Below the pieces are notes generated by a model. The model saw only the letters and a program-made list of their open reading frames with translations. It did no database searches and had not been told where the DNA came from. The position numbers were made by a program, and so were the translations under genes. Below, in pieces: positions 29,262 to 30,006 of a stretch of 64,000 nt of DNA; position 1 is the first letter of the stretch; each line of letters begins with the position of its first letter. Source of the DNA: Candidatus Freyarchaeum deiterrae (lineage in GTDB: Archaea; Asgardarchaeota; Jordiarchaeia; Jordiarchaeales; Jordiarchaeaceae); assembly GCA_037305845.1 (NCBI GenBank), contig CP147778.1:352001-416000 (forward strand), given 5' to 3'.

Positions 29262-29689
29262 AATTGAGTAAATTCGGCTGCAAAGTATGAATTATGCCTT
29301 TGGTTTTAGGTGCAACGCATTTCAGAGATCTTTTATGCCTTCAACAAGAGTATAGCTGGTGGCTCACTCTCTACGAGTAATCTTAGACTATGTGGTGAAA
29401 GGTATTAGTTTCGGAATCTTACTCCTTCAGTTTTTTGCTCATTCTCTCTCCTAAATTTTTATTTAGTTTAGGATAAGTACATACTCTAAGAAAAAGTATG
29501 AAGCGTAAGCTTTTTGACAAAATTAGTTTAACTATTTTTATTAAAGGATCTGTCCGCCGGTGGTTTAAACAGAAGGAGAAGGAGCAGTTTAGCTCTCCCA
29601 GAAAGAGAAACCCACCTCCCCCCAGTGCTTTTAAAAGAATGATTTATCTCGATCAGACTTTAAAGGGTTTGATTACTTACATAATTATA

Positions 29690-29853
29690 GAAGGCATTCC
29701 CGGAAGCTTTCGCAGACGGGATAGAGGGTGTAGAGCTTCACCCAGCGAGAACGGAACGGATTTCAAAGTTCTAGCAAAGGGAACTTGAAGAATATACAAT
29801 TTTTGTCCCAAAGCCTGAAGCGTAGAACGCCTTCAAAAGGAAGGCGTTCTTTC
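29690..29853 (+). ncRNA. Putative structured non-coding RNA of unknown class
   Basis: TTTAAAGG TATA-like box at 29659-29666. Four potential stem-loops, 5'/3' complementarity and a single-stranded AATTTTTG. GC-richer than the flanks. Confidence 0.35.
29824..29850. terminator. Perfect 11-bp hairpin
   Basis: AGAACGCCTTC-AAAAG-GAAGGCGTTCT, directly after the stop of the convergent small ORF. Confidence 0.6.
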
Positions 29854-30006
29854 TTATACGCGTTTAATTATTTCTATTTCGGCGTAGGTACTTATCTCTT
29901 TATGCTTTTTCTCGAAATCTTTTAGTAAAGCCTTGATTTTGTTTTCTAATTCGTCTTGTTCACTTTCGGGTATGAACTCAACTCTGGCTAATACGACTTC
30001 TGGCAT
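29854..30006 (-). CDS. 50-aa small protein (not in ORF track)
   Basis: MPEVVLARVEFIPESEQDELENKIKALLKDFEKKHKEISTYAEIEIIKRV*. GTGAGGGA upstream and a hairpin downstream. Confidence 0.65.
   Translation of the reverse strand: MPEVVLARVEFIPESEQDELENKIKALLKDFEKKHKEISTYAEIEIIKRV

Follow-up and report, generated by a model that had tools for sequence, protein, structure and literature searches.

The window, a 64,000-nucleotide stretch of the Candidatus Freyarchaeum deiterrae genome (one complete contig of 3,576,204 bp), carries a 308-bp protein-less element (29508-29815, forward strand) in a stretch with an osmC-like gene on one side and a pfkB kinase on the other. The element consists of a left end, a promoter-like block, an omegaRNA scaffold and a right end, and is delimited as a non-autonomous element by its ends, its flanking duplication and comparison with sister copies. 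Both ends are 19-bp IS5-like terminal inverted repeats (29508-29526 and 29797-29815), the left one deviating from the family consensus at 3 of 19 positions. Outside the repeats, a 9-bp target-site duplication is identical at 9/9 positions (29499-29507 and 29816-29824). With these repeats and the duplication around it, the RNA candidate of the first-pass annotation forms the right half of the element. A TAT motif, the candidate TAM of the empty site, precedes the left end (29497-29499), with its last T serving as the first base of the duplication.

Within the element, the conserved promoter-like block (29625-29666) contains two TATA-like boxes; in full-length copies it precedes the tnpB start by ~70-110 nt, and its function as a promoter is putative. 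The scaffold measures 127 nt (29690-29816, +), the first base of the right duplication included. Overlapping it, a relic of tnpB (29691-29774, +) comprises the last 27 codons and the stop, with an 82% match over residues 383-404 of the full-length protein. The predicted guide (29817-29836, +) derives from the flank, its length being taken from other TnpBs. A terminator-like host hairpin, SL4 (29824-29850), begins at the final base of the right duplication and belongs to the flanking DNA, outside the element.

A 50-aa ORF (29854-30006, reverse strand), for which the genome holds no clear paralog, converges on SL4; neither this ORF nor a 96-aa ORF across the element matches a Pfam family above cut-off. 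Between osmC and the element, ~240 bp (29262-29496) possibly represent a second insertion. A contig of a related organism joins 29262 to 29817, which is a hint only, given unknown letters between, 85% likeness and a side of 54 bases. The osmC orthologs of five sister genomes have different neighbours, and no empty site was found among them.

Scaffold copies and the fold of the RNA

BLAST of the intergenic region retrieves six further copies of 29690-29815 from the genome, and a covariance model finds eight scaffold copies, the window copy counted. Four of them are the 3' ends of intact ORFs of 401-427 aa. These ORFs, one of them at genome positions 1216654-1217880, encode TnpB, matching Pfam OrfB_IS605 and Cas12f1-like_TNB, with NCBIfam guided_TnpB above cut-off. 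The catalytic residues D194, E332 and D373 are invariant in 12 aligned proteins, and the triad is intact in the four open TnpB ORFs, so that a cognate TnpB for the window scaffold is encoded elsewhere in the same genome. In the repeat-bounded TnpBs a Gly occupies the usual RuvC-II Glu position, making them RuvC-II-rearranged; activity of such a rearranged site is known from T. volcanium TnpB and from Fanzors (PMC10530073).

The scaffold of the window copy is 73-81% identical to those of the captured sister copies, that is, copies whose tnpB lies inside the repeats. All three tnpB remnants found in the genome by tblastn begin at residue 379-383, none at an intermediate length, and in three remnants a TATA-like box stands 31-35 nt ahead of the scaffold. 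Judged by their sequences, these remnants fit the pattern of stand-alone guide cassettes. One sister remnant of 475 bp (genome 1710771-1711245) combines the promoter block with an intact pseudoknot. ARAGORN, run without intron search, finds only 9 tRNA genes in the complete genome, consistent with the many tRNA introns reported in PMC11291895.

Across 42 aligned scaffolds, 97.9% of the cells of SL1, SL2 and the pseudoknot are paired, with two-sided changes in six pairs; slid controls reach 26-53%. SL1 (29698-29721, compensatory changes in two pairs) and SL2 (29726-29743) are conserved, as is a third stem-loop (29745-29775), in which 29745-29752 pairs with 29768-29775. The pseudoknot joins the SL2 loop (29733-29738) to the last six scaffold bases (29811-29816), which consist of the last 5 bases of the right repeat and the first duplicated T. 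Such pairing to the scaffold 3' end is a conserved core of TnpB guide RNAs and required for activity in the TnpBs tested (PMC10097598, 10.1101/2023.11.20.567912, PMC10711439), and IS607 scaffolds are known to absorb one flanking base (PMC10711439). The strands read GGGCTT/AAGCCT in captured elements and GGGTTA/TAACCT in uncaptured ones, two pairs switching together. Thus the acquired end is matched by differences at two positions of one Leu codon. The switch probably happened once and was passed on to many sequences, and hence does not count as many independent changes. The window copy retains 5/6 pseudoknot pairs, the private A29734 breaking one. In single-sequence folds, the 3' arm of SL1 pairs over a long distance with the right repeat; SL1 is favoured over this pairing, since SL1 covaries. 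In single-strand folding of the window copy, the flank pairs with the scaffold 5' end, an arrangement that could inhibit this copy.

The first-pass annotation had proposed a structured RNA of ~160 nt with three stem-loops, a kiss between the SL1 and SL2 loops, a U-tract acting as an Sm site, a terminal SL4 and a switch between SL4 and the RNA's 5' end. Every motif that it quoted is present where it was placed (the TATA-like box, SL1, SL2, the loop hexamers, SL3, the U-tract, the 11-bp SL4 and the 9/10 match), and several of its deductions hold. SL1 and SL2 are both supported by compensatory changes, the region 29685-29860 folds better than 200/200 shuffled sequences (z -4.41), and a 5' end near 29690, ~31 nt after the TATA-like box, is plausible. 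The homolog and copy-number searches that it suggested return the eight genomic copies and the aligned scaffolds with covarying SL1, SL2 and pseudoknot, while the suggested Rfam scan returns no relevant match at the locus or at four homologous loci.

The remaining parts of that proposal fail in the sister copies. The kissing loop is paired in 73% of cells, shows no two-sided change and is equalled by 470/500 shuffles; it would also draw on C29739, a base already used by SL2, and it is perfect only because of A29734, which is G in the other copies. The proposed SL3 (29762-29789) is paired in 37.6% of cells and gives way to the third stem described above. The U-tract lies inside the right terminal inverted repeat and recurs at the left end and in transposase-only elements. 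SL4 is kept in no sister copy. As for the switch, the flanks of 13 sisters reach only 5-6/10 complementarity, and the 9/10 match, with a chance of ~0.001 per 40-nt window, involves one 10-mer chosen after the fact. On the aligned sequences, kissing loop, earlier SL3 and switch are specific to the window copy. An Sm-class snRNA with an Sm site between conserved stem-loops is rejected: the site is a DNA repeat missing from uncaptured scaffolds, and the 3' hairpin is unconserved.

A tnpB of an IS607-associated lineage inside IS5-like ends

IS200/IS605 and IS607 elements produce neither inverted repeats nor target duplications (PMC13565253). The window element has both, while the TnpB of its family belongs to the IS605/IS607 protein family. 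The 19-bp repeat is concentrated in the host's genus. In a sister genome, these repeats enclose an element of 1446 bp, whose reading frame of 355 residues matches Pfam DDE_Tnp_1 and DUF772 above cut-off. Its best NCBIfam model is IS5, at 64 bits against a cut-off of 140, with IS1182 weaker; the label 'IS5' is accordingly an assignment by likeness. The same repeats, with 9-bp duplications, also bound 136-140-bp MITEs and metagenomic transposase elements. The window copy therefore shares its terminal inverted repeats with an autonomous DDE element, and its 9-bp duplication with sister MITEs and transposase-bearing elements, as an IS5-family MITE does. The first-pass annotation had offered a MITE as an alternative; it was right about a non-autonomous inverted-repeat element and wrong about which inverted ends bound it.

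Contigs of close homologs yielded another nine bounded elements, of which seven have a perfect 9-bp duplication; in 3/17 elements with both ends the duplication is short or decayed. In two tnpB elements the first ~450 bp, with transposase codons 3-32 among them, are 78-81% identical to the start of the transposase element, so that tnpB occupies the place of most of the transposase. In the window's complete genome, neither an intact cognate transposase nor a DDE_Tnp_1 match nor a Y1 transposase was found with the queries used, and the IS5-like transposase has no match among plasmids. The genome does encode an intact IS607 tnpA; together with its own unrelated tnpB, which has a canonical zinc finger, it makes up what appears to be a complete IS607 element, separate from this family, at about 2.62 Mb (L303:267-2034). 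The 136-140-bp MITEs occur as families in G003 and G004 (L063-L073), and near-identical copies in G004 suggest recent activity.

Related TnpBs occur in other Asgard archaea and in some archaea outside that group; they terminate in a different short motif and showed no such repeats. One relative, 54% identical, follows a stretch that partially matches an IS607 transposase (95.5 bits against a cut-off of 110). In a tree of 34 proteins, the 14 repeat-bounded TnpBs form one group among unbounded ones, with support of 87/90, not starred, at which a single origin is neither rejected nor established. Taken together, these sequence comparisons demonstrate that, in the element family, the ends of an IS5-like DDE transposon enclose a tnpB whose lineage is associated with IS607.

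A lone IS5-like left end stands at a TAT site in L060:1010-1040 (G002:C46), and this site appears orthologous to the insertion site of uncaptured tnpB elements in other Freyarchaeota (L290, L292); the lone end possibly marks an insertion hotspot or a trace of capture. In another Asgard family, an uncaptured remnant consists of omegaRNA only (G020, L004:1471-1640), so guide-only remnants also arise without IS5-like ends.

Target sites and the activity of the window copy

At -11 to -9 before the left end, 15/22 TnpB-derived elements carry TAT, and the count rises to 17/22 when the right duplicate stands in for two mutated cases. The right flank starts with T in 17/17 elements. As a control, 17 elements with the same repeats and without TnpB parts show TAT in 0/34 orientations, and metagenomic repeat ends show it at 2/121, against a background of 2%. 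The TnpB-derived copies represent separate insertions, as their flanks differ although the elements are related. Among uncaptured relatives, TAT stands at the left junction in 6/8 readable cases. Since the scaffold ends at the duplicated T, the empty site presents TAT directly followed by the guide match, which is the geometry of a TAM. From these junctions, TAT is probably the TAM of the captured TnpB.

Thus the feature shares with TnpB omegaRNAs an overlap with the tnpB 3' end and extension to the right end of the element, a conserved scaffold followed by a variable guide from the flank, a left junction with a TAM-like motif, a cognate TnpB with an intact catalytic triad, and conserved stem-loops with a pseudoknot from a 5' loop to the scaffold 3' end. 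It is very likely the omegaRNA scaffold of a TnpB nuclease, carried by a 308-bp internally deleted mini-element of the captured family. In the mechanism that would follow, an IS5-like transposase would have moved the elements in trans, and the promoter of the left arm would drive a transcript consisting of the scaffold and the flank-derived guide. TnpB supplied by full-length copies would load this RNA, recognise TAT and cut chromosomes lacking the insertion, where TAT and the guide match lie together. Repair from the occupied allele would then restore or spread the element, as shown for IS605 elements (10.1101/2023.03.14.532601). The occupied site is probably spared, as it offers only 8 guide-matching bases after TAT. 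Such homing would account for the TAT bias, because only insertions at TAT would gain its advantage and persist.

The same bias is accounted for equally well if TnpB acts already at insertion. Beyond protecting the donor site, TnpB-omegaRNA would bind the end of its own element and deliver the IS5-like transpososome, whose DDE transposase is provided in trans, next to TAT; insertion itself would be TAM-directed, and protein-less copies such as that in the window would be mobile guide cassettes using the same route. The bias is near-complete, one-sided and always at the right-end junction, and the same ends without TnpB parts show none. Copies with 4-7-bp duplications keep the TA-T junction at the right end, and protein-less MITEs persist at non-TAT sites, so that non-TAT insertions are not purged at once. 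Homing selection nevertheless relies on established biochemistry to give this pattern (10.1101/2023.03.14.532601), the transposase comes from a separate gene, and no published case of a TnpB steering a DDE transposase was found; steering is accordingly judged unlikely. Movement of ordinary IS607/IS1341 units by a serine recombinase or a Y1 transposase, with incidental repeats, has in its favour the intact IS607 tnpA of this genome and a TAT preference that IS607-type relatives also display. Yet these enzymes make no inverted repeats or duplications (PMC13565253) and most copies have 9-bp duplications, while the IS607 tnpA has an unrelated tnpB of its own and no Y1 transposase was found, leaving this reading very improbable. 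A snRNA-like host RNA of ~160 nt, Sm-bound or switching and with SL4 included, would explain why the motifs exist, why the region folds well and why, in folding, the 5' end can pair with the SL4 arm if the RNA ends inside SL4. Its homologs, though, are tnpB 3' ends, its U-tract belongs to a transposon repeat that both ends carry and uncaptured scaffolds lack, and SL4 is common to no sister copy. With the kissing loop and SL3 failing covariation and no Rfam snRNA matching, such an RNA is extremely improbable.

A different question is whether the window copy is still active. It may be an inert fossil of a full-length element deleted in place, with an inherited structure that is now functionless; this bears on current activity only and is compatible with the omegaRNA identification. 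Pointing in this direction are the scaffold identity of only 73-81% to captured sisters, the private pseudoknot mismatch, the decayed left repeat and the genome itself, in which no cognate transposase and no full guide target with TAT elsewhere was found (the best has 6 mismatches in 19). Against a fossil stand the start of all three tblastn remnants at tnpB residue 379-383 and, in three remnants, the placement of the scaffold 31-35 nt behind the TATA-like box, and the duplication of the window copy is still 9/9. Fossil status is thus given nearly even chances. That the window copy still guides TnpB appears somewhat less probable than that it does not, its current activity being uncertain on account of the decayed left repeat, the pseudoknot mismatch and the possible pairing of guide and scaffold 5' end. 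With 3 mismatches in the left repeat, one in the pseudoknot and no cognate transposase found in the genome, it is probably immobile. The window copy is a modest, partly decayed member of the omegaRNA-bearing family.

Relation to known systems

The branches DDE-1 to DDE-6 (Altae-Tran et al. 2023, PMC10691335) already have TnpB between the inverted repeats of a DDE transposon, with solo copies that are moved in trans among them, and the DDE-associated carriers have been named as ISL2, IS630 and IS1031 (PMC13565253). The present family resembles DDE-1 to DDE-6 in the position of TnpB between inverted terminal repeats, the tnpB 3' end near the transposon end and the occurrence of solo copies. It differs in that its ends belong to an IS5-like element making 9-bp duplications, tnpB stands in place of most of the transposase gene, and the host belongs to Freyarchaeia. 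With IS607 TnpB of rearranged RuvC-II and with Fanzor2* (Yoon et al. 2023, PMC10711439), it shares the rearranged Glu six residues before the zinc-finger Cys position, the pseudoknot to the scaffold 3' end and a flanking or duplicated nucleotide built into the scaffold. In contrast to IS607 TnpB and Fanzor2*, the scaffold of the present family seems to take in no more than the first base of the 9-bp duplication. Fanzor2* in eukaryotic TIR transposons likewise reflects capture from IS607 by a cut-and-paste transposon (PMC10711439); the capture here is prokaryotic, in an Asgard archaeon, and the candidate TAM is AT-rich, not G-rich.

Like the PATE-like IS200/IS605 elements whose omegaRNA is used in trans (Meers et al., 10.1101/2023.03.14.532601), the mini-elements are short, lack a protein gene and keep both ends and the omegaRNA. 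Their ends are inverted repeats with a target duplication, unlike the subterminal hairpins of PATE-like elements. The omegaRNA of ISDra2 TnpB (PMC10097598) has a scaffold of similar size (116 nt, compared with 127 nt here), and the two agree in the tnpB 3' overlap and the pseudoknot beside the guide; ISDra2 is a Y1-type element with a canonical RuvC, and the likeness described here is one of layout. Spliceosomal snRNAs and SmAP-bound RNAs have only a U-rich tract between hairpins in common with the feature; in the present case it belongs to a transposon end, the 3' hairpin lies in the flank, and there is no matching Rfam model.

TnpB inside DDE ends (PMC10691335) and protein-less omegaRNA elements (10.1101/2023.03.14.532601) are already published. 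A literature search on IS903 or MITEs with archaeal TnpB returned nothing specific, and no description was found of an IS5-like, 9-bp-duplicating Freyarchaeia family with a retained capture junction, loop-end covariation and a matched no-TnpB control for target bias. TnpB inside DDE transposons is rare in prokaryotes, and inflexible target recognition has been suggested as the cause (2026 review, PMC13565253). Here, capture intermediates can be read: an IS607-type donor, an IS5-like recipient of which the first 450 bp are kept, a matching pseudoknot, and a one-sided TAM bias absent from the transposase alone. A parallel is the capture of Fanzor2 by cut-and-paste transposons in eukaryotes, of which the Asgard host is a close prokaryotic relative. 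With this family one can ask directly whether TnpB filters insertions or steers them; it also provides a predicted nuclease of ~400 aa, a 3-bp candidate TAM (TAT) and defined scaffold ends. Steering, if true, would mean that a minimal system of two components, lacking CAST machinery, carries out cut-and-paste transposition directed by a TAM.

A composite of ~3.2 kb elsewhere in the genome (2907813-2911018) begins with a left end and a decayed omegaRNA remnant and closes with a second remnant and a right end; between the two remnants an ORF of 644 aa runs on the opposite strand, and a 9/9 duplication flanks the whole. By eye, the product of the ORF resembles a beta-helix surface protein. The mini-elements of this composite appear to have moved a cargo gene.
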